From Candidatus Aminicenantes bacterium (GTDB taxonomy: Bacteria > Acidobacteriota > Aminicenantia > UBA2199): a stretch of 64,000 nt of DNA. Below are positions 9,263-41,315 of the stretch, piece after piece (within the stretch, counting starts at the first letter, position 1; each line of letters begins with the position of its first letter). The notes under the pieces were generated by a model. It saw nothing but the letters and a program-made list of their open reading frames with translations, was not told where the DNA came from and did not search any database. The DNA lies in NCBI GenBank assembly GCA_963732485.1, contig CAVSZS010000005.1, forward strand, positions 218,685-282,684. Direction: 5' to 3'. The position numbers were made by a program, and so were the translations under genes.

Positions 9263-9985
9263 TTAGTCCAGGTCGATCGAATCCTTGGTCTTTTTCTTGC
9301 GCTTTTCGTCCATCTCGTTGAATTTGTCCATGCAGCCGGCGTCCTCGCCCTCCACCATGGAGCATTCCAGGTATTCGGCGATGTAGAGGATGCAGGCGCG
9401 GATGGCCTTGCCGGTCGGGGTTTTCTTGTAGCTCTCGCCGCCGACCGAGAAGTTGCGCAGGCTGAGGCCGGCTCCCAGGGCAGAGCCCTTGGCGCTGGCT
9501 TCGATGGTGCGGGCGTTGGTGATCTCGCCGGTCTCGGTGTCGATGACCTTCAGGTCCACGGCGATGTAGGCCTTGTCCTTGCCGCCGCCCAGGGAGAGTC
9601 CCTTGAAGCGGACGCCGCCTTTCTTGCCCGAGGTGTTCTCCTCGTATGCGGACACGGTCGCCGCGACCAGGTACTGGGCCCCTTTCAGCTTCTTCATCTG
9701 CACCTTGGTCTTGTTGCTGACCCGTCCCGAGGCGCTCAGATCCTGTTCGCCGAGCACGGCGTCGATCTCTTTCCGCTCCAGCACGCTGAAGGCCTTGGTG
9801 CTCACCAATTCGGAAGCCAGCATGTCCTGCAGGTCGCTGGCCACGGAGCCGCTCCACCAGCCGGCGGCGGTCTGGTTGGTGAAACGCAGCACGCCGAGGC
9901 GGATCTTTTCCTTGGCCGCCAGAGGCTGGGAGACCAGTGTCAGCAGCAGCGCCACGGCCAGAAATGATAACAGCAATTTCTTCAT
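9263..9985 (-). CDS. CsgG/HfaB-family secretion or periplasmic assembly protein
   Basis: Signal peptide, then a CsgG-like N-terminal region (IRLGVLRFTNQT..SDLQDMLASELVSTKAFSVLERKEIDAVLGEQDLSASG). The C-terminal tail is charged and Cys-containing. Confidence 0.6.
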   Translation of the reverse strand: MKKLLLSFLAVALLLTLVSQPLAAKEKIRLGVLRFTNQTAAGWWSGSVASDLQDMLASELVSTKAFSVLERKEIDAVLGEQDLSASGRVSNKTKVQMKKLKGAQYLVAATVSAYEENTSGKKGGVRFKGLSLGGGKDKAYIAVDLKVIDTETGEITNARTIEASAKGSALGAGLSLRNFSVGGESYKKTPTGKAIRACILYIAEYLECSMVEGEDAGCMDKFNEMDEKRKKKTKDSIDLD

Positions 9986-10037: not shown

Positions 10038-11078
10038 CTATGGGAGGCCGGCTGCCCGCGTGATCTTCCGGATGCGGCAGGTCCAGCTCGGGATCACCCC
10101 CGGGATGCGGGTGGCCAGGGCGGCAACCGCCGGGCAGACGGCGCAGCGTTGCAGGTCGTCGCAGAGGCTGCAAAGAACCTTTTTTTCGCTGAAAAAATAG
10201 TCTTGGCGCAGCTCGGCATAGTTGGCGGCAATGGCGGCTATGGATTTTGCCGGGCGGGAGACGAATTCATCGAGCGTGCCCAGGCAGTATTTTGCGTAAT
10301 CCGGGTTCGCTGGAGCATGCCCCAGCAGGTCGTAGAACAGGGTGCAGCCCCAGACCGTGCGGTCGGGAAGCAGCGCCAGCCGGTCGTGGCCGGCCGAGCA
10401 GACGAAAACGCCTGACCTGCCGTCAGCGGCGAAGTTTTCCAGCGGCATCCTGCCGGTCTTTTGCCGCTGTTTTTTTGCCATGGCGGCCAAAAGGCCCAGT
10501 TGCGTTTCCAGGACCGCCAGGTCCTTTTTCGCCCAGGGGACGCACAGGTCCAGGGCGTAGCGCAGCCGGGTGTGGCCCCGGCGCAGCATCTCCTTCATGC
10601 TCGCGGCCAGCAGCGCCGCGGTCCGCGGCGTGAAAACGCTGTTGATGACATACCCCGCCGGGTAAATCCGTTGCAGGTTTTCCAATGCCGCTTCCACGGC
10701 GGCCACGCTGCCGGCGTCGCGTTTTTTCTGGGCCAGGCCATCGTAGCTCAGGAGCAGCTCGAACCGGTGTTTCTTCAAGAATAAAATGTGCTCAGGTTTT
10801 AACAGCGAGCCGTTGCTGGTCAGAGCGAAGCGGAACTTGCCTGCAGAGTTTTTAGAGGCATACGCGACGGTCTTTTTGATCAGCGGCCAGCTCAGGAGCG
10901 GTTCGCCTCCATAGAAGCCAAGTTGCGTTTCTCTGGCCAGTCGGGGCTGCAGGAGATCCAGGAACGCGGCAATATCTTCAAAGCGCAGCGTGTTTTTTCC
11001 CCGGGGTTGCGGGCAATAGGGGCAGGAAAAATTGCATGTGTCGCTCAGGACCAGGGTCAAAGAGGAGATCTCCCGCAT
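10038..11078 (-). CDS. Radical SAM enzyme with C-terminal SPASM domain (peptide/protein-modifying maturase-like, anSME-like)
   Basis: CxxxCxxC motif (CNFSCPYC) near the N-terminus, and a C-terminal cluster of 9 Cys (CSAG, WGC, KYC, CSLCDD, CAVCP, WTC) typical of SPASM auxiliary clusters. Confidence 0.8.
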   Translation of the reverse strand: MREISSLTLVLSDTCNFSCPYCPQPRGKNTLRFEDIAAFLDLLQPRLARETQLGFYGGEPLLSWPLIKKTVAYASKNSAGKFRFALTSNGSLLKPEHILFLKKHRFELLLSYDGLAQKKRDAGSVAAVEAALENLQRIYPAGYVINSVFTPRTAALLAASMKEMLRRGHTRLRYALDLCVPWAKKDLAVLETQLGLLAAMAKKQRQKTGRMPLENFAADGRSGVFVCSAGHDRLALLPDRTVWGCTLFYDLLGHAPANPDYAKYCLGTLDEFVSRPAKSIAAIAANYAELRQDYFFSEKKVLCSLCDDLQRCAVCPAVAALATRIPGVIPSWTCRIRKITRAAGLP

Positions 11079-11217
11079 GGCAGGGCCATTCTAGCAAGAG
11101 GCGCACATTCCTGCAATCCTTGTCTTGGACTGGTGGAACAGTATCCGCGGTCGCAGGTTTGTTGAAATAAATCAGTTTTTAAAATAGAATCGTTGCATAT
11201 CAATACGGAGGTAGATA

Positions 11218-11456: not shown

Positions 11457-14400
11457 TTGTTCGCAACAATGAAATTAATCTTCTCGTTTGCTATTCTGCT
11501 CTGCCTGTTACCGGTTTGTTTGCTTGCCGCCGGTGATCCGCGAAATGCAGCAAGCCGCCACGTCCTGGACGTCTGGAAAAGCGAGCGCGGGCTGCCCAGC
11601 AATTCCATTCCTGCTTTGACGCCTGACCGCTCCGGGTATTTATGGCTCGGCACCCAGGACGGGCTGGTCCGTTTCGACGGCAGGAGTTTCACTCTGTTCG
11701 CCAGGGCGAACACTCCGGCCTTCCGTGACGATTTTATCAGGGCGCTCTATTTGGATCGCAGGGGAACATTATGGATCGGATCGTACCTGGGCGATCTGCT
11801 CAGCCTGAGCCATGGAAAATTCCGCAGGCATCAGTTCGGCAAGCGTGATATCTCCCGCCCCATTTATTGCCTGGCCGAAGATCGAAAGAGCAACTTGTGG
11901 ATCGGGACGAATTCCGGGCTTTTTTATCGCCCGGCCGGCGACAAGGATCGTTTTTTTGCGATCTCCGGCTTCGCGGGAAAAATGATCAAGGGCCTCGTGG
12001 AAGATGGCTCGGGCCGATTGTGGGTGGCAACGGCAACCAGCGGCTTGTATCGCCTGGAGCTGCGCCGCTGGCGGCATTTTCCGCTGAACGGCAAAGGGAT
12101 GGAGGCCGACATCACTACCCTCTGTCTCTCTCGTGACGACAGAGTTTGGATCGGCACCCGGGACGGACTTTACGGGATGCAGGGAGAGAACGTGTCCCGC
12201 CTCATCCTGGGCAAGGGGTTGAGCAATATTATCATCTGCCTGCGTGAAGACCGGCGCGGCGTGCTCTGGGCCGGGACCGAGAACGGCCTGTATCGCATCG
12301 CCAAGCAAAAAGCGGGCATGGCGGCAGACGCCCGGGCTACAGCCGCTGGTTTCATCTATTCCATTGGCGAGGATCGCGAAGGTTCGCTGTGGGTCGGGAC
12401 CCTGGGCGGCGGGCTGATCCAGATACGAGATGCGCCAATCACTTTTTATGCGAACCCGCCAGGGCCCGGGAATGGAATGATCTTCTGCCTGAAGGAAGAT
12501 GGATCCGGCGCCATGTGGAGCGGGGGCGCCGCGGGCTACTTGGGGCGCTGCGACGACGACCGTTTCCGGGAAGTCGCCTTGCCCTCCGGGAATCGGGGCG
12601 CTAACGTCCAGGCCCTGGAGCTGGACAGGGCGGGTTCTCTTTGGATAGGCACTTCGGCAGGGCTGCTGCGCTTTCAGGGCGGCGCATTCCAAAGCGTTCC
12701 CCGGCTCTTTTCCCGGGAAGACATCGATGTGCGCAGCATCTTGAGCGATCGCCGGGACCGCTTGTGGGTGGCGGGTTGGGGATACGGCCTGGCCTGCCGT
12801 TCCGCGGACGGAAAAAGCGAGTTGTATACCGTTGCCTCGGGACTCGGCGATGACCGCATCAATTGCCTCCTGGAGGACCAACAGGGAAATTTGTGGATCG
12901 GCAGTGAATCGGGTGTCCGCGTCGGCAGGTTTGAGAAGGGCATGGCTTTTCGTCCGCGGCTGGCACTCGCCGGCTGCGAGGCCGTGTCGGCTTTCGAGGA
13001 CAAAGACGGTGTCATATGGATCGGCACGTACAATTACGGCCTGAAGGTTCACAAGGCCGGCCGCTGGGGTTCGCTGACCGTCGATCAGGGGCTTTTCGAC
13101 AACCGGGTATATGCCATTCAGGAAGATGCCGGCGGTTACCTCTGGTTTTCCAGCGAACGCGGCATCTTCAAGGCAAAAAAAACAGAATTGGAAAATGCGG
13201 CCTTTGATCCGCGGCAAAGGATTCACGGCCGGCTTTTCGATGAAAGCGACGGCTTGAGCAGCCGGATATGCAACAACGGAAGTCCCGCGGGCTGGAAGGA
13301 CAAGAGCGAACGAATGTGGTTCGCCACCCTGAAGGGAGTGGCCATGGTCGATCCGCTGATCACGTTGCGGAATGAAATGGCGCCCCCGGTGCTGCTGGAA
13401 GATGTCGTGGTCGATCACCGCAGCCTGCCGCTAGCGGGCTCTCGCGCCGCGACAACGCTGCGTCTGGCGGCGGGCAGCAAGCGCTTCGAGCTCAAGTACA
13501 CGGCACTGAGCTTCATCCGTTCCGACAGGGTCGAATTCAAGTACAAGCTCGAAGGCTATGACAAGGAGTGGGCTTCCGCCGGCAGCCGCCGCGAGGCGTT
13601 CTATAACGACCTGCGCCCCGGACGCTACAACTTCCGCGTGATCGCCGCCAACGCCGACGGGGTCTGGAACATGGCCGGGGCCTCCTTCGCTTTTTTCCTG
13701 AAGCCGTTCGTCTACCAGACCTGGTGGTTCATGGTCCTGGCCGCCCTGGCCTTCGCGGTCCTTTCGGCGCTGTCGTGGCAGCTCCTGAAAAAATACCTGC
13801 ATGCCGTCACCTTCTGGAAGAAAAAGACGCACCTCGGCCATTTCAAGATCCTGGAGCCCATCGGCACGGGCGGCATGGCCATGGTGTACAAGGCGCAGGA
13901 TATTCTGGACAAGAAGCGCATCGTGGCCCTCAAGGTGCTGAGGGAGGAAAATTTCCACGACGAGCTGCAGAAAAAGCGCTTCCAGCACGAGTCGCTGATC
14001 ACCGAGCAGCTGGACCACCCGCATATCGTGCGCATCTTCGAGCGCGGCGAGACCGATGATTGCCTGTATATCGCCATGGAGCTGCTGCACGGGCGGCCGC
14101 TGGCCCGGCTCATGCGCGAGGAAGGAAAGCAGGAGACGGCCGTGGCGCTGGACATCCTGCTGCAGGTGGTTGACGCCCTGCGCGCCATCCATGGCCAGAA
14201 CATCGTCCACCGCGACCTCAAGCCGGAGAACATCATGATCAGCGAGCGGCGCGGCCGGCCCCACTACGTCACGCTGCTCGATTTCGGCCTGGCCATCACC
14301 CCGGCCCAGTCGCGGCTGACCGTATCGGGCGTGGTCATCGGCACCGTGCGCTACCTGCCGCCGGAACGGATCAGCGACGGCATCTCTTCAGCGGCCGGGG

Positions 14401-14675
14401 ACATTTATTCGGCCGGCATCATCCTCTACGAGATGCTGACCGGCTCCAAGCCCTTCTGGTCGGAGGCGACCGGCGAGGTGATCCACCGCATCCTGGAAAC
14501 CTACCCCCTCGCCGCCCGCGTGATCAACCCCGCCATACCCCGCGAGCTGGAAGCGCTGATACAGGCCATGATCGACAAGGACCCGGCGCGGCGGCCGCTG
14601 CTGGCCACGGTCGAGAAGGAACTGCTGCGCCTGGCAGCGGGGCTTCCGCTCCCAGAAGAAAACAGGGAGGGCTGA
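11457..14675 (+). CDS. Membrane Ser/Thr protein kinase with periplasmic two-component-regulator beta-propeller (Reg_prop) repeats and Y_Y_Y domain
   Basis: Signal peptide, then many W/GL-containing Reg_prop repeats (LWIGTxxGL..). The Y_Y_Y-like region (FKYKLEGYDKEW) is followed by a TM helix (WWFMVLAALAFAVLSAL). A Hanks kinase follows (GxGxxG GTGGMAMVYKA, VALK, HRDLKPENIM, DFGLA, APE-like PPER). Confidence 0.8.
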   Translation: MFATMKLIFSFAILLCLLPVCLLAAGDPRNAASRHVLDVWKSERGLPSNSIPALTPDRSGYLWLGTQDGLVRFDGRSFTLFARANTPAFRDDFIRALYLDRRGTLWIGSYLGDLLSLSHGKFRRHQFGKRDISRPIYCLAEDRKSNLWIGTNSGLFYRPAGDKDRFFAISGFAGKMIKGLVEDGSGRLWVATATSGLYRLELRRWRHFPLNGKGMEADITTLCLSRDDRVWIGTRDGLYGMQGENVSRLILGKGLSNIIICLREDRRGVLWAGTENGLYRIAKQKAGMAADARATAAGFIYSIGEDREGSLWVGTLGGGLIQIRDAPITFYANPPGPGNGMIFCLKEDGSGAMWSGGAAGYLGRCDDDRFREVALPSGNRGANVQALELDRAGSLWIGTSAGLLRFQGGAFQSVPRLFSREDIDVRSILSDRRDRLWVAGWGYGLACRSADGKSELYTVASGLGDDRINCLLEDQQGNLWIGSESGVRVGRFEKGMAFRPRLALAGCEAVSAFEDKDGVIWIGTYNYGLKVHKAGRWGSLTVDQGLFDNRVYAIQEDAGGYLWFSSERGIFKAKKTELENAAFDPRQRIHGRLFDESDGLSSRICNNGSPAGWKDKSERMWFATLKGVAMVDPLITLRNEMAPPVLLEDVVVDHRSLPLAGSRAATTLRLAAGSKRFELKYTALSFIRSDRVEFKYKLEGYDKEWASAGSRREAFYNDLRPGRYNFRVIAANADGVWNMAGASFAFFLKPFVYQTWWFMVLAALAFAVLSALSWQLLKKYLHAVTFWKKKTHLGHFKILEPIGTGGMAMVYKAQDILDKKRIVALKVLREENFHDELQKKRFQHESLITEQLDHPHIVRIFERGETDDCLYIAMELLHGRPLARLMREEGKQETAVALDILLQVVDALRAIHGQNIVHRDLKPENIMISERRGRPHYVTLLDFGLAITPAQSRLTVSGVVIGTVRYLPPERISDGISSAAGDIYSAGIILYEMLTGSKPFWSEATGEVIHRILETYPLAARVINPAIPRELEALIQAMIDKDPARRPLLATVEKELLRLAAGLPLPEENREG

Positions 14676-15040
14676 TGGTTGAGGACAACGAGGCGACCAT
14701 GGAATTACCCGCCTGGCTGAACGGCATCGATGTGGCGGTCACGGTGTGCGATCGCCAGGGGGTGATCATCGCCATGAACGAGCGGGCTGGCAAAACATTC
14801 GCCGCCGACGGCGGCCGGGCGCTGATCGGCAAGAGCCTCATGGCCTGCCATCCCGAAGCGGCGCAACGGAAGATCCGCGTCCTCATGGAAACCGGGGCGA
14901 GCAACAGCTATACCATTGAAAAGAACGGCGTGAAAAAACTGATCCACCAGGAGCCCTGGTACCGGGACGGCGAGATGGGCGGCCTGGTGGAAATCTCCAT
15001 CGTCATCCCTTTCAGCCTGCCCCATTTCGTGCGCGGCTGA
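14675..15040 (+). CDS. Stand-alone PAS domain protein
   Basis: 121 aa with a PAS-like core (GIDVAVTVCDRQGVIIAMNERAGKTF). Its start overlaps the kinase stop (ATGA), so it is translationally coupled. Confidence 0.6.
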   Translation: MVEDNEATMELPAWLNGIDVAVTVCDRQGVIIAMNERAGKTFAADGGRALIGKSLMACHPEAAQRKIRVLMETGASNSYTIEKNGVKKLIHQEPWYRDGEMGGLVEISIVIPFSLPHFVRG

Positions 15041-15070: not shown

Positions 15071-17116
15071 TTAGTCCGCTACCCGGCCGATGTGCTCGGC
15101 GAACCAGCCCAGCACCGTTCGCCACCACAGGCGCGCGTTCTGCGGCTTTTGCACGAAGTGGTTCTCGTCGGGGAAATACAGCATTTTCGATTCGACGCCG
15201 CGCCGCTGCAGGGCGGTGAAGAGCATCAGGCCCTGGGATACCGGCACGCGGAAATCGTTCTCGCCGTGCACGACCAGCATGGGCACTTTGAACTTGTCCA
15301 CGTGGTTGGCCGGGTTCCACTTTTCGTACAGGGCACTCTCCCAGGGGGTGCCGCCGTATTCCCATTCCTCGAACCACAGCTCCTCGGTGGCATAATACAT
15401 GCTGCGCGCGTCGAAGATGCCGTCGTGAGAGACCAGGCAGCGGAAGGGGTACTTGAAGGCGTCGCTGTGGCCGGCCATCCAGTTGACCATGAAGCCGCCG
15501 TAGGAGGCGCCGGCCGCGACGATGCGCTTGCCGTCGATGAAGGGGTAGTTCTCCACCAGGTACTTCTGGCCGTTGACCAAATCGACGAAGGGGGCGCCGC
15601 CCCAGTCGCCGGAGATCGAGTCGGTGAAGGCCTGGCCGTAGCCCGGGCTGCCGTGGAAGTTGATGGCCGCCACCACGTAGCCGGGAGACGCGAACAGGCT
15701 GTGGTTCCAGCGGTAGTGGAAGTCGTCGGTCCAGGCGTTCTGCGGGCCGCCGTGCACCAGGAACACCAGCGGGTATTTCTTGCTGGCGTCGAAAAACGGC
15801 GGCTTGAGCAGCATGCCCTCGACCATCTCGTCCTTGGCGCCCTTGAAGCGGAAGGTTTCGACGCGGTTCAGCTCGATGTCCTTGAAGAGCTCGCGGTTGA
15901 CGTGCGTCAGCTGCGTCTGGCGGCGGCGGCGCAGGTCGAACAAGAAGATTTCCTGCGGCATGGCCACGCTCTGCGCCAGGTAGACCAGGGCATTGCCGTC
16001 CGGGGTCAGGCGCAGAGAATTGGCGTTGACGGCGGGGACGATTTTTTCTATCTTTTTCGAGGCGATGTGCAGCTTGAAGATCGGCTCGTAGATGCTCTCC
16101 GAGGCGATGAAATAGATGGCCCTCTCATCGGCGCTGAAAATGAAGGCGGCGATGGTGTTGGCGAAGTCGGCCGTCAGGTTCCGCCGGGCCCCGGTTTTCA
16201 GGTCATAGAGGATAATGTCTTTCTTGTCGGCTTCAAAACCGGCGCGGCGCATGGAAAGATACGCCAGGTAGCGGTTTTTCGGCGAGAAGACCGGGTTGGC
16301 GTCCGCGCCCTTGTTGTCGGCGCTGACATTCTTTTCCTCGCCGCCGTTCAAGGCGCGCAGGAAGACGTCGTTGTTGGTGGAGACGGCCACGACCGGGTCG
16401 GTGTTCCTGACATAGGCGAACCAGGCGTTGTCGGCGGAGAACAGGAAGTCCTGGCCGCCGCCCAGGTCCAGCGGCGGAGTGTCGAACTCGCCCGGCGTCA
16501 GGTTGGTGAATTCGTCGCTGCCGGGCCGGTGCCGGAAGACATGGCTGCGCTTGCCGTCGCGCCAGGAATCCCAGACGCGGAACATCAGGCCGGTCAGCAG
16601 CTTGGCCTTGACCTTGGAGCTTTCCGCCTCCTTGTCCAGGGCCAGGGCCTCGGCGAATGATGCCGCCCGCGGGTCGATATCGCGGGCGAAGGCGATGGTC
16701 TTCTCGTCGCCCGACCAGATGAAGTCGCTGACTCCGCCGGGAACCTGGGTCACGGGCGTGATCTGGGCGGGACGGTTCAGGTCGATGGCGAATACCTGGG
16801 GGTCGCCGGCGCGGGTGGAAACAAATGTCAACAGGCCGGAGCGCAGAAACCTGGGATTGGAGCTGTTGCCTTTGCCGTCGGTTACCATTTTTTGTTCACG
16901 GCCCTGCATGTCGATCGCGTACAGGTCGGAATGTGACGTGTTGGCAGCGATGTCCGGGGTGCGCACGGCGAAAACGACCCAGCGGCCGTCAGGGGATATG
17001 GCCGGCGCCGACAGGCGGCCGGCGGCGAACATGTCCTCGAAGCTCATGGCCCTCTTCTGTCCCCAGAGGGCGGCGGTCAGGAAAAGGCACAGGAAAAGCA
17101 GGCCTGATTTCTTCAT
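15071..17116 (-). CDS. S9 family serine peptidase (prolyl oligopeptidase / acylaminoacyl-peptidase type) with N-terminal beta-propeller
   Basis: Signal peptide and TolB-like propeller repeats. The C-terminal alpha/beta hydrolase carries the GASYGG nucleophile motif. The start is set at the ATG preceded by AGGAGA. Confidence 0.8.
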   Translation of the reverse strand: MKKSGLLFLCLFLTAALWGQKRAMSFEDMFAAGRLSAPAISPDGRWVVFAVRTPDIAANTSHSDLYAIDMQGREQKMVTDGKGNSSNPRFLRSGLLTFVSTRAGDPQVFAIDLNRPAQITPVTQVPGGVSDFIWSGDEKTIAFARDIDPRAASFAEALALDKEAESSKVKAKLLTGLMFRVWDSWRDGKRSHVFRHRPGSDEFTNLTPGEFDTPPLDLGGGQDFLFSADNAWFAYVRNTDPVVAVSTNNDVFLRALNGGEEKNVSADNKGADANPVFSPKNRYLAYLSMRRAGFEADKKDIILYDLKTGARRNLTADFANTIAAFIFSADERAIYFIASESIYEPIFKLHIASKKIEKIVPAVNANSLRLTPDGNALVYLAQSVAMPQEIFLFDLRRRRQTQLTHVNRELFKDIELNRVETFRFKGAKDEMVEGMLLKPPFFDASKKYPLVFLVHGGPQNAWTDDFHYRWNHSLFASPGYVVAAINFHGSPGYGQAFTDSISGDWGGAPFVDLVNGQKYLVENYPFIDGKRIVAAGASYGGFMVNWMAGHSDAFKYPFRCLVSHDGIFDARSMYYATEELWFEEWEYGGTPWESALYEKWNPANHVDKFKVPMLVVHGENDFRVPVSQGLMLFTALQRRGVESKMLYFPDENHFVQKPQNARLWWRTVLGWFAEHIGRVAD

Positions 17117-17254
17117 GGGGTTTCTCCTTGCTGAAATTTCGTCTGATCGCGGCGAACGGCTCGTTCGCCGGCCCCTTGCGGGCGATGAAAGCAAGCCGCG
17201 GGAGCCGTTGCCGGCCCCCGCGGCCCTAAAGGTCGCTGTGGGTCTGGAGCTTGG

Positions 17255-19129: not shown

Positions 19130-19525
19130 TTACGCCGGGACGGCGATCTCCCTGACCTTGCTGGCGATGCGCTCCAGTGGCGTTCCGGGAGGGAACACGT
19201 CGCGGATGCCGATCTGTTTCAACTCCGCCATGTCGGCGGCGGGGATGATGCCGCCCAGGAACATCGGCGGCGGCGTGATCTTTTTCTCCCCGTACACGGC
19301 CATGATCTTGCGGCATAGCTGGATGTGGGCGCCGGAGAGAATGCTCAGGCCCACGACGGAAACATCCTCCTGGATCGCCGTGTTGACGATCGTTTCCGGC
19401 GACTGGCGCAGGCCGGTGTAGATGACCTCCATGCCGGCGTCGCGGAGATACTTGGCGACGATCTTGGCGCCGCGGTCATGCCCGTCCAGCCCGGGTTTGG
19501 CGATCAGTACCTTTATTCTGTGCAT
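19130..19525 (-). CDS. Methylmalonyl-CoA mutase-type B12-binding small subunit (split-type)
   Basis: The cobalamin-binding motif DGHDRG is present. Overall it matches the stand-alone MCM C-terminal domains (KVLIAKPGLDGHDRGAKIVAKYLRDAGMEVIYTGLRQSPE). Confidence 0.7.
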   Translation of the reverse strand: MHRIKVLIAKPGLDGHDRGAKIVAKYLRDAGMEVIYTGLRQSPETIVNTAIQEDVSVVGLSILSGAHIQLCRKIMAVYGEKKITPPPMFLGGIIPAADMAELKQIGIRDVFPPGTPLERIASKVREIAVPA

Positions 19526-19636
19526 GATATGGCTATTTTCGCCCAAAAAAATTAAAAAGTCAATGTTTTAACTTGACATTACGGATGAAAAAGTGATAAA
19601 GATTAGCGCAGACGGTTGTTTTCCAGGAGGAGCAGT

Positions 19637-20998
19637 ATGAGTAAAAAAGTGATTGTTTTGGCTGATAATAGCTATACAATCCGCCGCATCGTCGAGCTGT
19701 CGTTCTCGGAGATCGAAAATATCGAGATCCGCAGTTTTGAAAACGGCTCCGGGATCAAGGAAAAACTGCTGCAACTGGCCCCGGCCGTGGTGATTGTCGA
19801 CGTCAAACTGCCGGAGTTCAACGGCTATGACGTGTGCCGCTTCGTCAATGAAACCCCGATCCTGAAAAAATGCCGCGTTTTCCTGATGAAGGGCAGTTTT
19901 GAGCCCGTCGACAACGAAATGCTCAAGAACCTCAAGTATGAGGACATCATCACCAAGCCCTTCGATTCCAACGCCCTGGTCGGCGTCGTCATGAAGATCG
20001 TCAACCAGGACGAGCAGGGCCCGGCGGCCGGATTCCCCGACGAAGGCCCCACGACCTTCCCCGAGGATTTTCCCGAGATCGAAACCGAAGTGCCCGAAAG
20101 CGAGGATATCAGCTTCTCCGATATCCGCGGCGAAATGGATGCCCCGCCGTCGTTCGAACGCCCCGCCGCCGCCGGCCCGATGCTGGAGCGCGACGAGATC
20201 CTGCCCTCCGAGGAGATCACCCAGGGCACGCAGCCGCTCAAGGACAATCTCATGCCCCAGGAAAGCGAGGAGACCATCCGCAATCCCTTCGAAGAAGAGC
20301 CGGCTTTCGAAGAGATCAACATGGCGTCCCCCGCCCCCGCGACCGCCACTCCCCTTGAATATGAGAAAGCGCCGCCAGCGGCTTCGCCCGCGGCCGCCGA
20401 TCACCGCGACGTCTCCGATGAGTTCCATGATCGCTTCCTGGAAATCGCCAACGAGGATACTTCCGAGGACCTGCTCAAATCATCCCTGGTCAATTCGCCG
20501 CTCGCTGATGCCGACGATCTGCAGTTCCCCGTCGAACTCAAGGACGAAGTGCCCGGCGTTGACGAAAAGCTGTCGCTGGAGTTTGAACAGACCGATATGG
20601 GCTCCCCGGCCAAGACCCTGTATGCCGGGCCGGGCAAGACCGATTTTTTCGGCGACGGCCTGAAGGCGCCCGCGGCGAGGGAGCTGGAATTGCCCGTGGA
20701 TAAAGTTCCGCAAAAAGAGCGCAGCCCTGAAAAAGTCAGGCCGGAAGCGCTTTCCCCTCAGGATGAGCTGGCGCGGCTGAGCGGCATGACCAAGCGGGAA
20801 AGCAAGCCCGAGCACCCGCCCGCGGCGGCGGGTCCTGTTGCGGACGCGCAGCGCTTCGAGCTGACCGGCAAGCTGGAAGACAAGCTGAACCAGACGATCA
20901 AGGAATTGCTCTGGGAGATCGTCCCGCCCCTGGCTGAAAAGATCATCAAGGAAGAGATAGACAAGATCAAGACCGAGTTGAACGACAGCGGCCTTTAA
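19637..20998 (+). CDS. Response regulator receiver protein with long acidic disordered region and C-terminal amphipathic helix
   Basis: The receiver domain has the phospho-acceptor Asp (VVIVDVKLPEFNGYD) and conserved Lys (KPF). About 300 aa of D/E/P-rich low complexity follow, then a conserved helical tail. The start is set at the ATG preceded by GGAGG. Confidence 0.65.
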   Translation: MSKKVIVLADNSYTIRRIVELSFSEIENIEIRSFENGSGIKEKLLQLAPAVVIVDVKLPEFNGYDVCRFVNETPILKKCRVFLMKGSFEPVDNEMLKNLKYEDIITKPFDSNALVGVVMKIVNQDEQGPAAGFPDEGPTTFPEDFPEIETEVPESEDISFSDIRGEMDAPPSFERPAAAGPMLERDEILPSEEITQGTQPLKDNLMPQESEETIRNPFEEEPAFEEINMASPAPATATPLEYEKAPPAASPAAADHRDVSDEFHDRFLEIANEDTSEDLLKSSLVNSPLADADDLQFPVELKDEVPGVDEKLSLEFEQTDMGSPAKTLYAGPGKTDFFGDGLKAPAARELELPVDKVPQKERSPEKVRPEALSPQDELARLSGMTKRESKPEHPPAAAGPVADAQRFELTGKLEDKLNQTIKELLWEIVPPLAEKIIKEEIDKIKTELNDSGL

Positions 20999-24410: not shown

Positions 24411-25169
24411 TCAAACCTTGAAGATGACGTTCAAATGGCAGAGGGTGATCTCGTCCTCGGCCTTCAGCTCGTGCTTGACGCCGGTCTGCAGCTTGTTGCC
24501 GTTCAGGAACGTGCCGTTGATGGCCCCCGGCTCCTCGGAGAGGTAGAACTTGCCGTCCTTGAACTGGATCTTGGCGTGCTTGCGCGAGATGTATTTTTCC
24601 TCGTCCTCGTCGGTCAGGTCGATGTCGGGGACGAAGCCGGTCGTATAGTCGCGCCGGCCCAGGAAAGTCTGGGTTTTGGTCAGCTGCACCAGGCGGTTCG
24701 AGCGCTGGATGATCAGGTAGGCCTTGATCTCGCCGCCGATCTTTTCCGACGTCTGGTCTTCCTTTTTGGCTTCCTTGCCGGCCGCCTTTTCCTTCTGGGC
24801 CGGAGCGGCGGCAGCCTGCTCCATCAGCAGGGATTGGATCTTGATGTGCTTCTCGCTCAATTTTTTCAGGATCTTCAGGGCGATGTCCGGTGTCTGCTTG
24901 AGCATCTCGGTCAGGGATATGTAGGGGATCTTGATCAGGAACGAATCCTCGATGACCTCGACGGTGTAGATGGCGTTCTGCTCGCTGTTCAGGGACTCTT
25001 CGCCGAAGAAATCACCCTTGGTGAGCGTGGCCAGGATCTGGCCCTGGCCGTCGTGCTTCAGCTGCACCTTGCCCTTGTTGACGATGAAAAAGTCGCTTTG
25101 AATGTCGCCTTTCTTGTAGATGACGTCGCCGGCGGAATATTTACTGATGAATTTCTTCAATATGTCCAT
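24411..25169 (-). CDS. Cyclic nucleotide-binding domain / FHA domain fusion protein
   Basis: N-terminal cNMP-binding fold (GDFFGEESL..) and a C-terminal FHA domain (YISRKHAKIQFKDGKFYLSEEPGAINGTFLNGNKL). Confidence 0.7.
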   Translation of the reverse strand: MDILKKFISKYSAGDVIYKKGDIQSDFFIVNKGKVQLKHDGQGQILATLTKGDFFGEESLNSEQNAIYTVEVIEDSFLIKIPYISLTEMLKQTPDIALKILKKLSEKHIKIQSLLMEQAAAAPAQKEKAAGKEAKKEDQTSEKIGGEIKAYLIIQRSNRLVQLTKTQTFLGRRDYTTGFVPDIDLTDEDEEKYISRKHAKIQFKDGKFYLSEEPGAINGTFLNGNKLQTGVKHELKAEDEITLCHLNVIFKV

Positions 25170-29246: not shown

Positions 29247-29276
29247 TTGACAACCTGTATTTATATATATTATTAT
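29247..29276 (+). promoter_or_regulatory. Candidate mraZ promoter (TTGACA ... TATTAT)
   Basis: TTGACA at 29247-52 and TATTAT at 29271-76 with an 18-nt spacer. It conflicts with the upstream ATG at 29275, so the true start is more likely the ATG at 29287. Confidence 0.35.
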
Positions 29277-29277
29277 G

Positions 29278-29302
29278 TGGGAGAAAATGGGACAAAATGG
29301 GA
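29278..29302 (+). promoter_or_regulatory. MraZ operator: three TGGGA direct repeats with 5-nt spacers (10-bp periodicity)
   Basis: gTGGGAgaaaaTGGGAcaaaaTGGGAtaa matches the described MraZ binding-site architecture (TGGGN x3, 5-nt spacers) at the 5' end of mraZ. Confidence 0.55.
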
Positions 29303-29778
29303 TAAATGAACGCTTCAGGGGCAGCTATATCGCCACGATCGATGACCGTGGCCGGGTGAAGATCCCTGCCAAATATCTTTCCGTCCTGGACGGGGGCTTC
29401 GGCAGGGAAACCTACCTGACTTCGGTCAACGGCGACCATGTCCTTTTCTATCCCATGAAGGTCTGGCAGGAGATCGAGCGCAAGATCGCCGCCATCCCCA
29501 TGCGCGACCCCGAGATGGAGGAATTCGTCAGCCGCAGCAGCTACTGGGGCACGGAGACCGAAATCGATCCCAAGGGCCGCATCCTGATCCCCGCCGACCT
29601 GCGGGCCGCCAGCAAGCTGGAGAGCGGGCTGCTCATCCTGGGCAAGATCGACTACATGGTGATCTGGAACAAGGAGGTCTTCGAGGCGCGCTACATGGGC
29701 GGTCAGTTCAGCGACGAAAAACTGAACCGGGTCTCGAGGTTGCTCAATGAATTTTCCTCACTACCCCGTAATGAATAG
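29287..29778 (+). CDS. mraZ: Transcriptional regulator MraZ
   Basis: Two DxxxR motifs (DDRGRVKIP and DPKGRILIP). It is the first gene of the dcw cluster. The ATG at 29275 is an alternative start. Confidence 0.85.
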   Translation: MGQNGINERFRGSYIATIDDRGRVKIPAKYLSVLDGGFGRETYLTSVNGDHVLFYPMKVWQEIERKIAAIPMRDPEMEEFVSRSSYWGTETEIDPKGRILIPADLRAASKLESGLLILGKIDYMVIWNKEVFEARYMGGQFSDEKLNRVSRLLNEFSSLPRNE

Positions 29779-30631
29779 GGAGGTGCTGGAGATCTTCGCC
29801 GGCACCCGGAAGAAACTTTTTGTCGATTGCACGGTGGGCGGGGGCGGGCACAGCCAGCGCCTGCTCGCGGCTTTCCCGGAAGCCGGCCTGATCGCGATCG
29901 ACCAGGACGGCGAAAGCCTGGCCCTGGCCCGGGAGAACCTGCGGGAATACGGGGAGCGCGTGCGCTTCCACCAGGGGACCTACCTGCGGCTGTTCGAGGA
30001 CTTCGACTGCCGGCGCCTGGATGTCTCCGGGGTCCTGGTCGATCCGGGGATCTCCACCGTGCAGTTGCGGGACGGCCGGCGCGGCTTCTCCCATACCCAG
30101 GACGGCCCCCTGGACATGCGCAAGGATGCGAGCTCCGGCCTCACCGCCGCCGACGTGCTCAATTCCTTTCCCGAAGAGCGCCTGCGCGACATTTTTTTCA
30201 GTTTCGGCGAAGTGCCCTTTGCCCGGCGCCTGGCCAAAGCCGTGATCGAAAGGCGCCTGTTCACTCCCTGGAGCTCGACGGCGCAGCTGCGGCTTCTCAT
30301 CGAAGGCCTGACCCACTGGCATCCGCGCCGCGGACTGGTGCACCCGGCGGCCCAGGTTTTCCAGGCCCTGCGCATCTTCGTCAACCGCGAGCTCGAGGGC
30401 CTCGACGCCTGGCTGGAGAAGATCCCCGGACAGCTCCCGGCGGGCAGCCGCGTGGTCTTCCTCACCTACCATTCCCTGGAGGACCGGCTGGTCAAGCGCG
30501 CTTTCCAGGAACTGCAGCGCCGGGAAAAAGCCGGGCTGCTGCAACCCTTTCCCGCCAAGCCCGGCCATGACGAGATCGAGGAAAATCTCGCTTCGCGCTC
30601 TGCCAAGTTGCGGGCCCTGGAGGTCGCATGA
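29747..30631 (+). CDS. rsmH: 16S rRNA (cytosine1402-N4)-methyltransferase
   Basis: SAM-binding motif (DCTVGGGGHS), MraW family features, and a position directly after mraZ. Confidence 0.9.
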   Translation: MNFPHYPVMNREVLEIFAGTRKKLFVDCTVGGGGHSQRLLAAFPEAGLIAIDQDGESLALARENLREYGERVRFHQGTYLRLFEDFDCRRLDVSGVLVDPGISTVQLRDGRRGFSHTQDGPLDMRKDASSGLTAADVLNSFPEERLRDIFFSFGEVPFARRLAKAVIERRLFTPWSSTAQLRLLIEGLTHWHPRRGLVHPAAQVFQALRIFVNRELEGLDAWLEKIPGQLPAGSRVVFLTYHSLEDRLVKRAFQELQRREKAGLLQPFPAKPGHDEIEENLASRSAKLRALEVA

Positions 30632-30927
30632 ACAGGCGGCAGCGCTCCCGCTCCGCGATCCGCCTGGCCGTCCTCGCCTTCTTCATTTTTCTCGTGCTGT
30701 TCATCTACTCCAGCATGAACCTGATGAACGTCGACCTGGGCTACCGGCAGCATGAGCTGCTGCTGGCCGAGGGCCGGCTGCGTCTGGAAATCGATTCGCT
30801 GCTGGCGTGCAGGGCCGGCCTGCTGAGCCTGGAACGCATTGAGCGCATTGCCCGCGCGGAGCTGGGCTACCAGTATCCCGAGCCCGGACAGATCGTCACG
30901 GTCGTGGAGAAGGGCCATGAACGCTAA
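30628..30927 (+). CDS. ftsL: Cell division protein FtsL-like (small bitopic coiled-coil protein)
   Basis: 99 aa with a single TM helix (LAVLAFFIFLVLFIY) and a coiled-coil periplasmic part. It sits between rsmH and ftsI. Confidence 0.55.
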   Translation: MNRRQRSRSAIRLAVLAFFIFLVLFIYSSMNLMNVDLGYRQHELLLAEGRLRLEIDSLLACRAGLLSLERIERIARAELGYQYPEPGQIVTVVEKGHER

Positions 30928-32608
30928 TCGCCAGGAAAAAAAGCGCTTCTTCGCCCTGACCATTTTTTTCTTTCTCTGGATCTTCGCCATCAGCTTCAAG
31001 TTGTTCAACATGCAGGTGCTCGACTATACCACCTACATGGCCAAGGTCAAGGCCCAGACCCATCGCGTCGAGGAGCTTCATTCCAAGCGCGGCACCATCA
31101 CCGACCGCAACGGCGAGATCCTGGCCATCTCGCTGCGCTCCAAGTCGGCCTTCATCAGCAACAAGGACAGCGCGCTTTCCCTCGCCGCCTTTCGCGAGTT
31201 CTGCCTGCGGCTGCCGCTCTCCGGCGCCCAGAAGGTGAATGTCGCCAAGCGCATCCGCCGCGGAGAAAAATTCATCTGGCTGAAGCGCAAGCTGACCGAC
31301 GAGGAATACCTGAAGGTCAAGTCCCTGGCCGAGGTCGGGACAACGTCCGGAGCTATCGATTTTCTGGACGAGTATCGCCGGGTCTACCCGCAGCGCCAGC
31401 TCGCCGCCCACGTTCTCGGCGGCGTGGGCATCGACGAGCAGGCGCTGGGCGGCATCGAGACGAGCCTGAACTCCGAGATCAAGGGCCACGGCGGCAAGCT
31501 GAAGGTCCTCATCGACGCCCGCAAGCGCATCTTCCAGTTCAAGTACCTGGAGCAGCCGGTGCCGGGTCGCGACATCCACCTGAGCATCGACGCGCCCCTG
31601 CAGTTCTTCGTGGAACGGGAACTGGCGGCGGCGGTCGAGTTGTACCGCGCCGCCGGCGGCGCCGTGATCGTCATGGACAGCCGCAGCGGCCAGGTCCTGG
31701 CCATGGCATCCAACCCGAGCTACGACCCGGAGACGATCTGGAAAACCCCCCTGCCGGTCCTGAAGAACAAGGCGATTTCCTTCCTCTACGACCCCGGCTC
31801 CACCTTCAAGGTCGTGCTGGCGGCATCGGCCCTGGAGAACCGCGCCTGCGGCCGCCAGGAAACCTTCGACTGCCACAACGGCGTCTACGCCATACGCGAC
31901 CGGCAGATTATCGACATCCACCCCTACGCCCGGCTCTCTTTCGACGACATCATCGTGCACTCGAGCAACATCGGCGCCGCGCAGGTCGGCATGCGCCTGG
32001 GCGGTGACAGATATTCCCAAACCATCGGCCACTTCGGATTCGGCCGCCGCACCGGCATCCGGCTGCCGGCGGAAGAGAACGGCATCGTCAATCCGCCGCA
32101 AAAATGGAGCGGCGTCTCGCTGGCCTTCCTTTCCTTCGGCTACGAGATCGCGGTGACGCCACTGCAGATGGCGGCCGCCTTCAACGTGCCCGCCTCGGGC
32201 GGCTTTTTCGTGCGGCCGCAGATCCTGCGCGCCGGCCCGCCTGACGGCGAGCGCGAGCGCGTGCTCTCCGCAGGCAGCAGCGAGCAGCTGGCGGAGATCA
32301 TGACCGCCGTCGTCAGTCGCGGCACCGGCAAGAAAGCCGGCATCGCCGGCCTGGAGATCGCCGGGAAAACCGGCACGGCCCACAAGATCAAGACGGGGAA
32401 ATATGCCGGCAGCTACGTTTCCTCATTCGGCGGTTTTTTTCCGGCCCGCGATCCGCGCGTGACCATGTTCGTGATCATCGACGAGCCCGAAGGCCTGTAC
32501 TTCGGCGGCGACGTGGCCGCGCCTGTTTTCAAGTCCATCGCCGAGAAGATCATGCTCTGCCTCGGCATGTTTCACGATTCCGCGGCGCAAAACGAGATCC
32601 GCTTATGA
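30917..32608 (+). CDS. ftsI: Peptidoglycan D,D-transpeptidase FtsI (PBP3)
   Basis: N-terminal TM helix, PBP dimerisation domain, and transpeptidase motifs SxxK (GSTFK), SxN (HSSN) and KTGT. Confidence 0.85.
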   Translation: MNANRQEKKRFFALTIFFFLWIFAISFKLFNMQVLDYTTYMAKVKAQTHRVEELHSKRGTITDRNGEILAISLRSKSAFISNKDSALSLAAFREFCLRLPLSGAQKVNVAKRIRRGEKFIWLKRKLTDEEYLKVKSLAEVGTTSGAIDFLDEYRRVYPQRQLAAHVLGGVGIDEQALGGIETSLNSEIKGHGGKLKVLIDARKRIFQFKYLEQPVPGRDIHLSIDAPLQFFVERELAAAVELYRAAGGAVIVMDSRSGQVLAMASNPSYDPETIWKTPLPVLKNKAISFLYDPGSTFKVVLAASALENRACGRQETFDCHNGVYAIRDRQIIDIHPYARLSFDDIIVHSSNIGAAQVGMRLGGDRYSQTIGHFGFGRRTGIRLPAEENGIVNPPQKWSGVSLAFLSFGYEIAVTPLQMAAAFNVPASGGFFVRPQILRAGPPDGERERVLSAGSSEQLAEIMTAVVSRGTGKKAGIAGLEIAGKTGTAHKIKTGKYAGSYVSSFGGFFPARDPRVTMFVIIDEPEGLYFGGDVAAPVFKSIAEKIMLCLGMFHDSAAQNEIRL

Positions 32609-34062
32609 AATACCTGGATGAACTTCTTGGCAAGCACGAGTCCCTGGCCTGGCGCGGCGACCTGCACGTCGTTGTCAGCGGCATCGAGTTCGATTCGCGC
32701 CGCGTGCTCCCCGGTGGCTGCTACGTCGCGGTCAAGGGCTTTCGCGAGGATGGAATCGCCTATGTCGGCGATGCCGTCGCCCGCGGCGCCGCCGCCGTCG
32801 TCTCGGTCCACCCGCCCGCCGCGGAATACCCGCAGGTCACCTGGGTGCAGGTCAAGAACGACCGTCGGGCGCTGAGCGCCATGGCCAGCCGCTTTTTTGA
32901 CAATCCCTCGCGGAGCCTGAAGGTGATCGGCGTGACCGGCACCAACGGCAAGACGACCACCGTGGCCCTGGTCCAGGAACTGCTCGGCGCCGCCACCACC
33001 GCCGCCATCGGCACCCTGGGCATGAGCTTCGCCGCCAGCTCCCGGCCCACGAAACTGACCACGCCGGAGGCCCCCGAGCTGTTCGCCTTCATGGCCGATG
33101 CGGTCAAGGCCGGCTGCGCGAACCTGGTCATGGAGGTCTCCTCGGCCTCACTCAGCCTGAACCGCGTCGACGACATCGCGTTCTCCCAGGCGGTGTTCAC
33201 CTCCTTCTCCGGGGACCATCTGGATTTCCACGGCACCATGGAGAACTATTTCGAGGCCAAGCTCTCCCTGTTCAAAAAGCTCGGCAGCGACCATTGGGCG
33301 ATCATCAACGGCGATGACCCCATGGGGCCGCGCATCATCCGCGAGCTGAACTGCCGCTATGTCACGTTCGGTTTTTCGCCAACGGCCGACATCCGGCCGT
33401 TGAAATACGCATTCAGCATGGATGGCATCAAGGCCGTGCTGCAGACGCCGCGCGGCAAGATCGAGTTCCAGAGCCGGCTGCTGGGTCGCTTCAACCTGCT
33501 GAACATCATGGCGGCGGTCAGCTCGGCCCTGGTCAAGGGCGTCGGCGCCGACCGCATCAGCGACGCCCTGGCCGCCTTCATGCCGGTCAAGGGCCGGGCG
33601 AATATCGCCTATGCCGGAGATTTCCTGGTCGTGGTGGACTATGCCCACACCGACGATGCGCTGGAGAACCTGCTGCGGGCTTTCCGCGAGGTCACGCGGG
33701 GCAAGTTGCTGCTGGTTTTCGGCGCCGGGGGCTCGCGCGACAGGACGAAGCGGCCGCGCATGGCCCAGGTCGCCGGCCGCCTGGCCGACCGGGTGGTGGT
33801 GACCAGCGACAACCCGCGTCAGGAGGACCCGCAGGCCATTATCGCCGACATCGTGGCCGGCTTCGACCCCGGCTTCACGGCCTATCAGACCGAACCCGAC
33901 CGCCGGGCGGCCATCGGCCTGGCCCTGGACATGGCCGCTGCCGGCGATGTGGTGCTGATCGCGGGCAAGGGGCATGAGAACTACCAGATCTTCAAGGATC
34001 GCACCGTCCATTTCGACGACGTCGAGGTGGTGCGGGAAAAAATGGAGCCGCGCCATGCCTGA
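32605..34062 (+). CDS. murE: UDP-N-acetylmuramoyl-L-alanyl-D-glutamate--2,6-diaminopimelate ligase
   Basis: Mur ligase P-loop (GVTGTNGKTTT), the MurE-specific DNPR motif (VVTSDNPRQEDP), and its position in the dcw order. Confidence 0.9.
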   Translation: MKYLDELLGKHESLAWRGDLHVVVSGIEFDSRRVLPGGCYVAVKGFREDGIAYVGDAVARGAAAVVSVHPPAAEYPQVTWVQVKNDRRALSAMASRFFDNPSRSLKVIGVTGTNGKTTTVALVQELLGAATTAAIGTLGMSFAASSRPTKLTTPEAPELFAFMADAVKAGCANLVMEVSSASLSLNRVDDIAFSQAVFTSFSGDHLDFHGTMENYFEAKLSLFKKLGSDHWAIINGDDPMGPRIIRELNCRYVTFGFSPTADIRPLKYAFSMDGIKAVLQTPRGKIEFQSRLLGRFNLLNIMAAVSSALVKGVGADRISDALAAFMPVKGRANIAYAGDFLVVVDYAHTDDALENLLRAFREVTRGKLLLVFGAGGSRDRTKRPRMAQVAGRLADRVVVTSDNPRQEDPQAIIADIVAGFDPGFTAYQTEPDRRAAIGLALDMAAAGDVVLIAGKGHENYQIFKDRTVHFDDVEVVREKMEPRHA

Positions 34063-41306: not shown

Positions 41307-41315
41307 GAGGGACAC

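Follow-up and report, generated by a model that had tools for sequence, protein, structure and literature searches.

A receptor Ser/Thr kinase with a Reg_prop/Y_Y_Y ectodomain recurs beside a radical-SAM enzyme and a precursor-like small ORF in Aminicenantes: a possible modified-peptide signalling cassette

The window analyzed here is a stretch of 64,000 nucleotides from a Candidatus Aminicenantes bacterium (GenBank assembly GCA_963732485.1, contig CAVSZS010000005.1, positions 218,685 to 282,684). It carries a gene for a Hanks-type receptor Ser/Thr kinase (STK), preceded by a small open reading frame (ORF) and, in divergent orientation, by a gene for a radical S-adenosylmethionine (rSAM) enzyme, and followed by a gene for a stand-alone PAS protein (Table 1). 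A preliminary description of this DNA had proposed that the kinase is fused to a periplasmic ectodomain with a Reg_prop beta-propeller and a Y_Y_Y domain, that it is translationally coupled to the PAS gene and that it may respond to carbohydrates. We analyzed the encoded proteins and the conservation of the gene arrangement. The most consistently kept partners of the kinase are the small ORF and the rSAM gene, not the PAS gene.

The kinase ORF, as found in the ORF list, extends from 11457 to 14675 on the forward strand and encodes 1072 aa from a TTG codon. The ATG at 11469 is the likely start, which would give 1068 aa; it is favoured by the opening of orthologues (MRFIFSF... or MKLIFSF...) and by the signal peptide. 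Both the kinase and PAS ORFs show the frame bias typical of real genes, rich in G and C at third codon positions (GC3; the sequence is ~62% GC). Searches with Pfam detected Reg_prop in 8 stretches of the kinase protein (E 7.1e-61), a Y_Y_Y domain (E 4.9e-14, 52.4 bits against a cut-off of 26.6) and a Pkinase domain (E 1.2e-51, 176 bits against a gathering cut-off of 31.7), and inspection of the sequence revealed 13 blade motifs spaced by ~42 aa in the ectodomain. The hydropathy profile displays an N-terminal signal peptide, MKLIFSFAILLCLLPVCLLAAG, peaking over residues 1-25, and one transmembrane (TM) segment, WWFMVLAALAFAVLSALSWQLL, at residues ~752-775. As this segment is followed by KKYLHAVTFWKKK (positive-inside), the kinase is predicted to be cytoplasmic and the propellers periplasmic.

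Structural comparisons led to the same architecture. A sequence search of the PDB retrieved the BT4663 sensor (4a2l, 1.2e-56) and BT3049 (3v9f, 3.5e-41) and, for the kinase part, StkP, PknE and PknB (~1e-37 to 1e-43). The AlphaFold2 (AF2) model of the receptor, with a predicted local distance difference test score (pLDDT) of 82, contains 14 four-stranded blades, a beta-sandwich at residues 641-744, a continuous helix at residues 752-787 and a kinase fold; the signal peptide is modelled as a helix (residues 2-18) followed by a low-confidence linker. The model superposes on 4a2l over ~775 columns (E ~1e-49, target-normalized TM-score 0.78) and on PknB with a TM-score of ~0.9. The kinase motifs are intact (GTGGMA 799, VALK 819, HRDLKPEN 914, DFG 938, PPE 964) and are invariant in an alignment of 38 homologues. 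Pfam found no HisKA, HATPase_c, receiver or AraC helix-turn-helix domain in the protein; as these output domains are absent and a Pkinase domain is present instead, the receptor is not a hybrid two-component system (HTCS) protein. Assignment to the PASTA kinases (NF033483, PknB/Stk1) was tried and rejected, with a score of 256.6 bits against a cut-off of 450, an alignment confined to the kinase domain and no PASTA repeats. Combined, the Pfam and PDB matches, hydropathy and model agree on a Hanks kinase joined by a single TM helix to a Reg_prop/Y_Y_Y ectodomain. By its sequence features the receptor is a type-I (N-out, C-in) single-pass Ser/Thr kinase, catalytically competent as judged from its motifs, and in the periplasm it has a homologue of the double-propeller/Ig-like sensor found in Bacteroides HTCS. 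On the architecture, the preliminary description was right: the propellers belong to the Reg_prop family, the Y_Y_Y domain is present, and the predicted output is Ser/Thr phosphorylation and not a His-Asp phosphorelay.

The fusion is not unusual; it is common and automatically annotated. A search of 5.8 billion proteins with the receptor gave 7971 matches at E <= 1e-10, and the best 120 clusters were inspected. Ectodomain and kinase are combined in 86 of these, always in the order ectodomain-kinase, and the remaining 34 join the ectodomain to histidine-kinase, GGDEF or cyclase outputs; ~41 clusters are full-length receptor orthologues (53-94% identity). An N-terminal kinase was suspected in a class of ~1300-aa homologues and ruled out, the order again being ectodomain-kinase. 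Source names attached to the homologues include 'Candidatus Aminicenantes', 'Acidobacteriota', 'protein kinase' and 'two-component regulator propeller domain-containing protein'. Among species-representative genomes, full-length matches occurred only in metagenome-assembled genomes (MAGs) labelled Aminicenantes and in one labelled Chrysiogenales. No description of the Reg_prop-kinase fusion, or of the rSAM/Hanks-kinase cassette presented below, was found in the searchable literature, whose coverage is incomplete and in which absence is no proof.

The small ORF ends 50 nt upstream of the kinase and has GGAGG six bases before its ATG. A scan saw no terminator-like site on the forward strand between it and the kinase, and the two genes are probably co-transcribed. 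When 21 unique orthologues were aligned, a leader of ~50 aa (MDIKKxNxNLLLGKIRTYL...EKALAKLE) was conserved with low entropy, a cysteine (Cys58, 11389-11391) was invariant and the tail was hypervariable, the variable core being CKLTQSALD in the window; the ratio of non-synonymous to synonymous substitution rates (dN/dS) is 0.22 for the leader and ~0.75 for the core. The ORF matches no Pfam or NCBIfam model, and its 99 homologue clusters are all annotated 'hypothetical protein', without a Pfam domain. These clusters hold 80 distinct cores with the consensus C-[RK]-x4-[VAI]-[IML]-x0-3 and 8-10 residues from the Cys to the end. At least 11 relatives have a single leader followed by 2, 3 or 4 cores in tandem, for example 4 x ACKKGYPAIPP in P0273 and 4 x GCSEKKRVID in P0340; P0302, P0303 and P0322 are also tandem, and P0344 carries two different cores. 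Such multi-core precursors occur in the same cassette arrangement. With its conserved leader, invariant Cys, hypervariable core and tandem cores in relatives, the small ORF looks like the precursor of a ribosomally made peptide with post-translational modifications (RiPP).

The rSAM enzyme matches the Radical_SAM model of Pfam (E 3.2e-14). Alignment shows an invariant CX3CX2C motif at C15/C19/C22 and eight further invariant cysteines, including CX2CX5CX2C, in a C-terminal part that is SPASM-like only. The best NCBIfam match is PapB (5.5e-25, 88 bits against a cut-off of 340), followed by the nif11-type, CcpM and SCIFF models; every score is far under its cut-off, which places the enzyme in no curated maturase family. 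The closest solved structure is CteB (5wgg, 1.1e-22). From its closest characterized relatives, CteB and PapB, the enzyme is predicted to be thioether-maturase-like. No PqqD-like gene was found near it. A reading as a formylglycine-forming sulfatase maturase was discarded, as the cores are devoid of C-x-P-x-R and the match to anSME (8.5e-9) is weaker than that to CteB.

Several comparisons bear on the association of these genes. Firstly, the arrangement of a reverse-strand rSAM gene followed by a forward-strand small ORF and kinase was found in every informative orthologous locus, ~20 in number (the window, L001, L002, L004, L006-L011, L023, L086-L089, L091, L092, L106, L167, L172 and L173), and a small ORF lies directly upstream of every kinase copy, tandem duplicates included. 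The unit made of small ORF and kinase is tandemly duplicated in L002/L012 and in L010, with a single rSAM gene in front; the duplicated copies have different cores, ectodomains that are ~48% identical and kinase domains that are ~76% identical. Among the units compared, identity is 52% for the ectodomain, far lower than the 79% of the kinase domain. In an Acidobacteriota MAG (L003) the kinase is 40% identical and the flanks are unrelated, yet rSAM gene, small ORF and kinase are kept.

Secondly, the association extends to distant enzymes. A metagenome search with the rSAM alignment gave ten full-length homologues (29-37% identity), all ten of which have an upstream small ORF with a leader of the form NFxLLxxIxxYL...AxxAFxxI and a Cys-containing tail; the precursors are multi-core in L098 (two cores) and L102 (four IRRVxGCPPP repeats). 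A profile search with the small-ORF alignment gave 13 representatives, two of which are long unrelated proteins matched over short stretches, and the distant precursors of L093-L102 are not joined to those of Aminicenantes by sequence methods; the link between the two groups rests on position, leader pattern and rSAM homology. Wherever enough flanking DNA is available, the distant rSAM gene adjoins the gene for a receptor that spans the membrane once and exposes a repeat scaffold outside the cytoplasm: STK-TM-TPR in L094, L095, L097, L098, L099 and L101, STK-TM-PD40 propeller in L102, and a Reg_prop/Y_Y_Y HTCS in L093. At the last locus (1230-6601), the rSAM relative and a Cys-tailed precursor (ORF at 837) lie directly upstream of a Reg_prop/Y_Y_Y-HisKA-HATPase-receiver-AraC system, which connects the canonical HTCS architecture, too, with the peptide system.

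Thirdly, two sets of control loci were compared. A Hanks kinase was present within 7 kb in 0/62 loci with more remote rSAM genes (L103-L165 except L106), and this rSAM gene was present in none of ~72 loci with other Reg_prop sensors (L013-L085). Combined, these results indicate a specific association of receptor and rSAM gene that has recurred in four or more gene arrangements.

Table 1. Location of the features of the locus and of other genes in the window
Feature	Position	Strand	Basis or remark
Radical-SAM enzyme, 346 aa, peptide-maturase-like	10038..11078	-	Pfam, NCBIfam, alignment; divergent from kinase operon
Sigma-70-like promoter candidate, TTGAAA-17-TAGAAT, 10/12	11162..11190	+	Consensus match only; upstream of small ORF
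RiPP-precursor-like small ORF, 66 aa	11218..11418	+	Leader/core pattern, orthologue alignment, dN/dS
Type-I receptor Ser/Thr kinase, 1068 aa from ATG	11469..14675	+	Pfam, PDB search, hydropathy, model
Signal peptide (predicted)	11469..11534	+	Hydropathy, model
Two seven-bladed Reg_prop beta-propellers, residues ~30-630	11556..13358	+	Pfam, blade motifs, AF2 model
Y_Y_Y Ig-like beta-sandwich, residues ~641-744	13389..13700	+	Pfam; strands in AF2 model
Single TM helix (predicted)	13722..13793	+	Hydropathy, model helix
Hanks-type kinase domain, every catalytic motif present	13845..14606	+	Pkinase match, motifs, superposition on PknB
Stand-alone PAS protein, 121 aa from ATG 14675 or, more likely, 113 aa from ATG 14699	14675..15040	+	PAS_4, fold
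cNMP-binding and FHA protein	24411..25169	-	cNMP_binding 1.1e-18, FHA 1.2e-11; ~9.4 kb from kinase
CsgG-family lipoprotein	9263..9985	-	CsgG match 1.9e-49
S9 prolyl-oligopeptidase-family peptidase with PD40 propeller	15071..17194	-	
B12-binding-domain protein	19130..19546	-	
Response regulator	19616..20998	+	
dcw cluster	29275..42542	+	N-terminal sequence and gene order only
Secreted ankyrin/Lactamase_B_3 protein	44834..46606	-	
SBBP beta-propeller-repeat protein, 512 aa	46632..48170	-	

Starting from what is directly observed (domain anatomy, topology, intact catalytic motifs, a precursor-like small ORF and a recurrent gene association), we tentatively favour a reading that may be right: the three genes would form a cassette composed of a maturase-like rSAM enzyme, a RiPP-type precursor and a receptor kinase that is its signalling member, with the peptide as ligand. 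The rSAM enzyme would cross-link the core at the invariant Cys, a thioether being expected by analogy with CteB and PapB. The modified peptide would be released, reach the periplasm and be bound by the propeller ectodomain of the cognate kinase; the ectodomain dimer would rearrange on the ligand, as proposed for BT4663, and transmit the signal through the TM helix to turn the kinase on. The kinase would then phosphorylate cytoplasmic targets, for which the PAS protein and an FHA protein encoded elsewhere in the window are candidates only. Pairing of ligand and receptor is favoured by three observations: the unit of duplication is precursor plus kinase, divergence is much faster in the ectodomain than in the kinase domain, and the associated receptors all expose repeat scaffolds. 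Scaffolds of these kinds commonly bind peptides or proteins.

Several points weigh against this reading. The whole model rests on gene neighbourhood, from which we infer chemical modification, export, binding of ligand to receptor and downstream targets. The Pfam SPASM model matches neither the whole rSAM enzyme nor its C-terminal region alone. The enzyme is also devoid of an N-terminal RiPP recognition element (RRE), as the alignment with CteB begins only at CteB residue 96, and alignments with RRE-containing maturases in general start at their residues ~76-110. Neither a signal sequence nor a double-glycine motif is present in the precursor, and no exporter or leader peptidase is consistently found in the cassette. 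The only characterized ligand for this type of ectodomain is a glycan (the BT4663 entry gives heparin/heparan sulphate sensing). One divergent locus (L171) keeps kinase and PAS gene in the same syntenic slot without rSAM gene or precursor, so that the kinase can exist without them, and three further Reg_prop kinases (L005, L169 and L170, 37-38% identical) are also found without either. The rSAM control loci come from varied phyla in which Hanks kinases are rarer, and the figure obtained with them is not a corrected statistic. Across 11 full-length units, core identity correlates weakly with ectodomain identity (rho 0.34) and not with kinase identity (rho 0.13); the former correlation is weak, comes from phylogenetically non-independent pairs and is not relied on.

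An unlikely alternative, and the one that survives best, is that the kinase regulates the peptide system: it would sense some other periplasmic cue and control the production of, the immunity to or the response to the rSAM-modified peptide. The association data would be the same, with co-localization reflecting the linkage of regulator and target seen beside many RiPP clusters. Sensor (Reg_prop, TPR or PD40) and output (STK or HTCS) vary around a constant rSAM enzyme and precursor, as interchangeable regulators would, and the missing exporter is also consistent with this explanation. Furthermore, the RaS-RiPP operons of streptococci are reported to adjoin Rgg/SHP quorum-sensing systems that control them (PMC9389541, PMC13361665). 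However, the output of Hanks kinases is not DNA binding, and the cassette has no conserved transcription factor; the joint duplication of precursor and kinase, with divergence of both cores and ectodomains, fits cognate pairs better than a shared regulator; and it is with the kinase, not with the enzyme, that the precursor probably shares a transcript.

Quite unlikely, in our judgement, is the model outlined in the preliminary description, in which a periplasmic carbohydrate sensor has a Ser/Thr output and a translationally coupled PAS protein as substrate or modulator. In its favour, the BT4663 sensor, which senses glycans, is truly homologous to the ectodomain, and the kinase is intact. A scan of 30 further window ORFs for partner domains, however, revealed no linked SusC/D, polysaccharide utilization locus (PUL) or glycoside hydrolase genes, which weakens the case for carbohydrate sensing. 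Of the phosphosignalling partners suggested in addition, an FHA or a PP2C protein, only the first was found: the cNMP-FHA protein is real and is the sole FHA protein among the ORFs scanned, where it is a candidate only for a phospho-threonine reader, and no PP2C was detected among them.

That a stand-alone PAS gene follows the kinase is borne out. The small downstream ORF matches PAS_4 (E 5.9e-6, 26.9 bits against a cut-off of 23.1), its AF2 model (pLDDT 86) consists of a five-stranded sheet plus helices, and Foldseek aligned the model with many PAS domains at a probability of 1.0, including those of Aer2, Aer, CitA and BvgS. A Cys-His-Pro that opens the F-alpha helix is invariant in 120/120 homologues and is a lead only, to a candidate heme or metal site; the sequence match to FixL is not significant (E 0.13). 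The translational coupling claimed for the two genes hinges on the PAS start taken from the longest ORF. At the junction, GGGAGGGCTGATGG, the TGA of the kinase and the ATG at 14675 have one base (A) in common, a 1-nt overlap, with a GGGAGG resembling a Shine-Dalgarno sequence 4 nt upstream of the ATG. Among the 120 closest of 2640 PAS homologues, 104 have a length of 113 aa and the start M-x4-W-L-N-G, which corresponds to Met9 in the window, that is, to the ATG at 14699, preceded by GAGG and 24 nt downstream of 14675; the 81-88% identical PAS proteins P0123-P0125 open with MELPAWLNG. As the homologues match the 113-aa form, the overlap, literally present in the longest-ORF reading only, is probably not the functional PAS start; the start of the homologues removes the overlap, and the arrangement is not conserved.

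The PAS gene lies downstream of the kinase and in the same orientation in 14 of the 19 informative orthologous loci. These include the divergent L171, where the kinase is 38% identical and the PAS gene is located 24 nt downstream, an arrangement that counts in favour of a link, as does the high conservation of the PAS protein. The gene is inverted in L007 and in L086, the closest relative (kinase 94% identical). In L011 and L092 it is missing or survives as a remnant of 37 aa (truncation in L092), and it is absent in L003. A gene of 63-65 aa for a YgaP-like_TM protein (PF11127) separates kinase and PAS in ~10 loci, which with the inversions and losses weakens the case for the PAS protein as partner. 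Furthermore, all loci with the PAS gene belong to one extended synteny block (Fer4/CCG, GerMN, Amidase_3 ... S9 peptidase, lipoprotein, M23 peptidase, B12-binding, response regulator, valyl-tRNA synthetase); as PAS adjacency is seen only inside this block, it has little weight as a sign of partnership.

The interval that follows the kinase is variable in other respects. The YgaP-like gene occupies 11199-11545 in L001 and 11124-11543 in L002, the counterpart being 14676-14698 in the window; no such gene is present between kinase and PAS in the window, L004, L087, L171 or L173. The interval from kinase to S9 peptidase resembles a rearrangement hot spot, given the PAS inversions of L007 and L086 and the PAS truncation of L092. 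The PAS slot of L003 holds a 129-aa ORF downstream of the kinase (9261-9650) with an LVDTGTA signature typical of retropepsin-like aspartic proteases and no Pfam match at 1e-3.

We consider it very unlikely that there is no functional link at all, the kinase being an orphan sensor surrounded by inherited gene order. Most loci do come from one lineage, the Aminicenantes, with extensive common synteny, L171 demonstrates that kinase and rSAM/precursor can uncouple, and Hanks kinases are numerous in Acidobacteriota. Retention of the trio in the unrelated context of L003 argues against this explanation, as does the independent recurrence of receptor-kinase adjacency for distant rSAM homologues in four or more different arrangements of genes, set against 0/62 in the remote-rSAM controls.

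Less probable still is an envelope sensor, in which the kinase would monitor peptidoglycan or envelope fragments, as PASTA kinases do, within a neighbourhood devoted to cell-wall remodelling. Amidase_3, GerMN, a CsgG/LpoB-like lipoprotein, an M23 peptidase and a periplasmic S9 peptidase are syntenic, and the PknB/Stk1 model gives the best score for the kinase domain; the cell-wall neighbours are nevertheless absent in L003 where the trio of rSAM gene, precursor and kinase persists, the receptor has no PASTA domain and the synteny is limited to closely related genomes. A role of the kinase in peptide maturation is hardly credible. The kinase would, for example, take over leader binding from the missing RRE or phosphorylate the peptide, like the kinase domains of class III/IV lanthipeptide synthetases. 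The enzyme is RRE-less, a kinase domain is the common element of most associated receptors and weak generic matches to LanL/LanKC kinase models exist, but many cores are devoid of Ser, Thr or Tyr (e.g. CRKNQPAL), lyase and cyclase domains are absent, L093 carries a histidine kinase in place of the Hanks kinase, and biosynthesis has no need of a large extracytoplasmic sensor.

Some neighbouring genes deserve mention in their own right. The gene for the secreted S9 peptidase converges on the PAS gene; nearly all orthologous loci keep it in synteny, L003, L004 and L171 being without it. Many precursor cores end in Pro-rich stretches or have such stretches between them (AIPP/ANLL); that this peptidase might process the precursor is pure speculation. 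The CsgG-family lipoprotein, which also has a weak LpoB match, adjoins the rSAM gene in most Aminicenantes loci and is not beside it in L003, L004 and L173. CsgG proteins form outer-membrane peptide channels, and the lipoprotein is conceivable as a candidate peptide exporter. The stand-alone B12-binding-domain protein is divergent from the response regulator, both being conserved in the synteny block, and the latter has a C-terminal region of ~330 aa without a Pfam match. The division/cell-wall (dcw) cluster, an ordinary housekeeping context, was read as mraZ, rsmH, ftsL-like, ftsI, murE, murF ... ftsW, murC ... ftsZ. A secreted protein farther downstream combines ankyrin repeats with a metallo-beta-lactamase-fold domain. 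The SBBP gene has a GC3 of 0.54, compared with ~0.85 for its neighbours, in a local GC dip to 0.54, and this region may be recently acquired DNA.

Returning to the peptide-receptor cassette, it is possible, rather than probable, that the locus represents a previously undescribed system, in which a short, rSAM-cross-linked, Cys-initiated RiPP from a single- or multi-core precursor is the cognate extracellular ligand of a type-I receptor Hanks kinase, the pairs of precursor and receptor are duplicated and diversify like pherotypes and sister receptors of the TPR, PD40 and HTCS kinds exist. If this is true, prokaryotes would have here a counterpart of the peptide/receptor-like-kinase signalling of plants, and a Reg_prop/Y_Y_Y sensor would have its first peptide ligand. 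Few bacterial Hanks kinases have a known ligand, and the Reg_prop/Y_Y_Y sensor has so far been tied only to glycans. The locus places a testable ligand candidate, an 8-10-residue Cys-initiated core, beside its putative receptor, and natural specificity variants are at hand in the tandem paralogous pairs and the 80 distinct cores, together with an uncharacterized family of RRE-less rSAM maturases. A real link would also mean a new RiPP family, a new mode of peptide sensing via Ser/Thr phosphorylation in the poorly studied Aminicenantes/Acidobacteriota and the re-use of HTCS-type sensors with different outputs for non-glycan signals. Were the link not real, it would still be useful to know that the fusion is common and automatically annotated and that the 'coupling' to PAS is weak.

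Among known systems, the receptor resembles BT4663 (4A2L/4A2M) and BT3049 (3V9F) in its signal peptide, two seven-bladed Reg_prop propellers, Y_Y_Y domain and single TM helix. Identity is 23%, and the receptor differs from these sensors in output, a Hanks kinase in place of HisKA-HATPase-receiver-AraC, in the absence of a PUL context and in its suspected ligand, a peptide here and a glycan for sensors of the BT4663 type. A scissor-like movement has been reported in dimer signalling by BT4663 (PMC8534201). By analogy, the receptor probably signals through a similar dimer rearrangement. Like PknB, StkP and Stk1, it is a Hanks kinase that crosses the membrane once and has its sensor outside the cytoplasm, and its kinase domain is ~31% identical to that of PknB and close to it in fold. 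PknD of M. tuberculosis, in turn, has an extracellular beta-propeller sensor. Compared with PknB/StkP/Stk1 and PknD, the topology is inverted here (N-terminal sensor with signal peptide, C-terminal kinase) and the propeller family is another one.

The genetic logic of the cassette is that of agrBDCA in Staphylococcus and comCDE in streptococci, in which genes for a small precursor of variable core, its maturation enzyme and a receptor kinase in the membrane lie together, precursor and receptor diversifying as cognate pairs. None of the components is common to these systems and the cassette: the agr/com receptors are polytopic histidine kinases, maturation there relies on a membrane peptidase (AgrB) or on an ABC exporter and not on a radical-SAM enzyme, and the cassette has no response regulator. 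CteB (SCIFF) and PapB (ranthipeptides) resemble the enzyme in their rSAM core, Cys-rich C-terminal region and a peptide with an obligatory Cys; here an RRE and a match to the SPASM hidden Markov model are lacking, and the core has a single Cys instead of Cys-rich repeats. The TOMM kinase/cyclase fusion (TIGR03903) is a precedent for a Ser/Thr-kinase protein named for a RiPP system. The kinase domain of the receptor matches its model at 4e-43, with 147 bits against a cut-off of 705.75, and is thus not a member; that fusion belongs to the cyclodehydratase class of RiPPs and has no propeller ectodomain. Finally, the RaS-RiPP operons of streptococci are likewise coupled to a signalling system (PMC9389541), which is Rgg/SHP there and a Hanks receptor kinase here.

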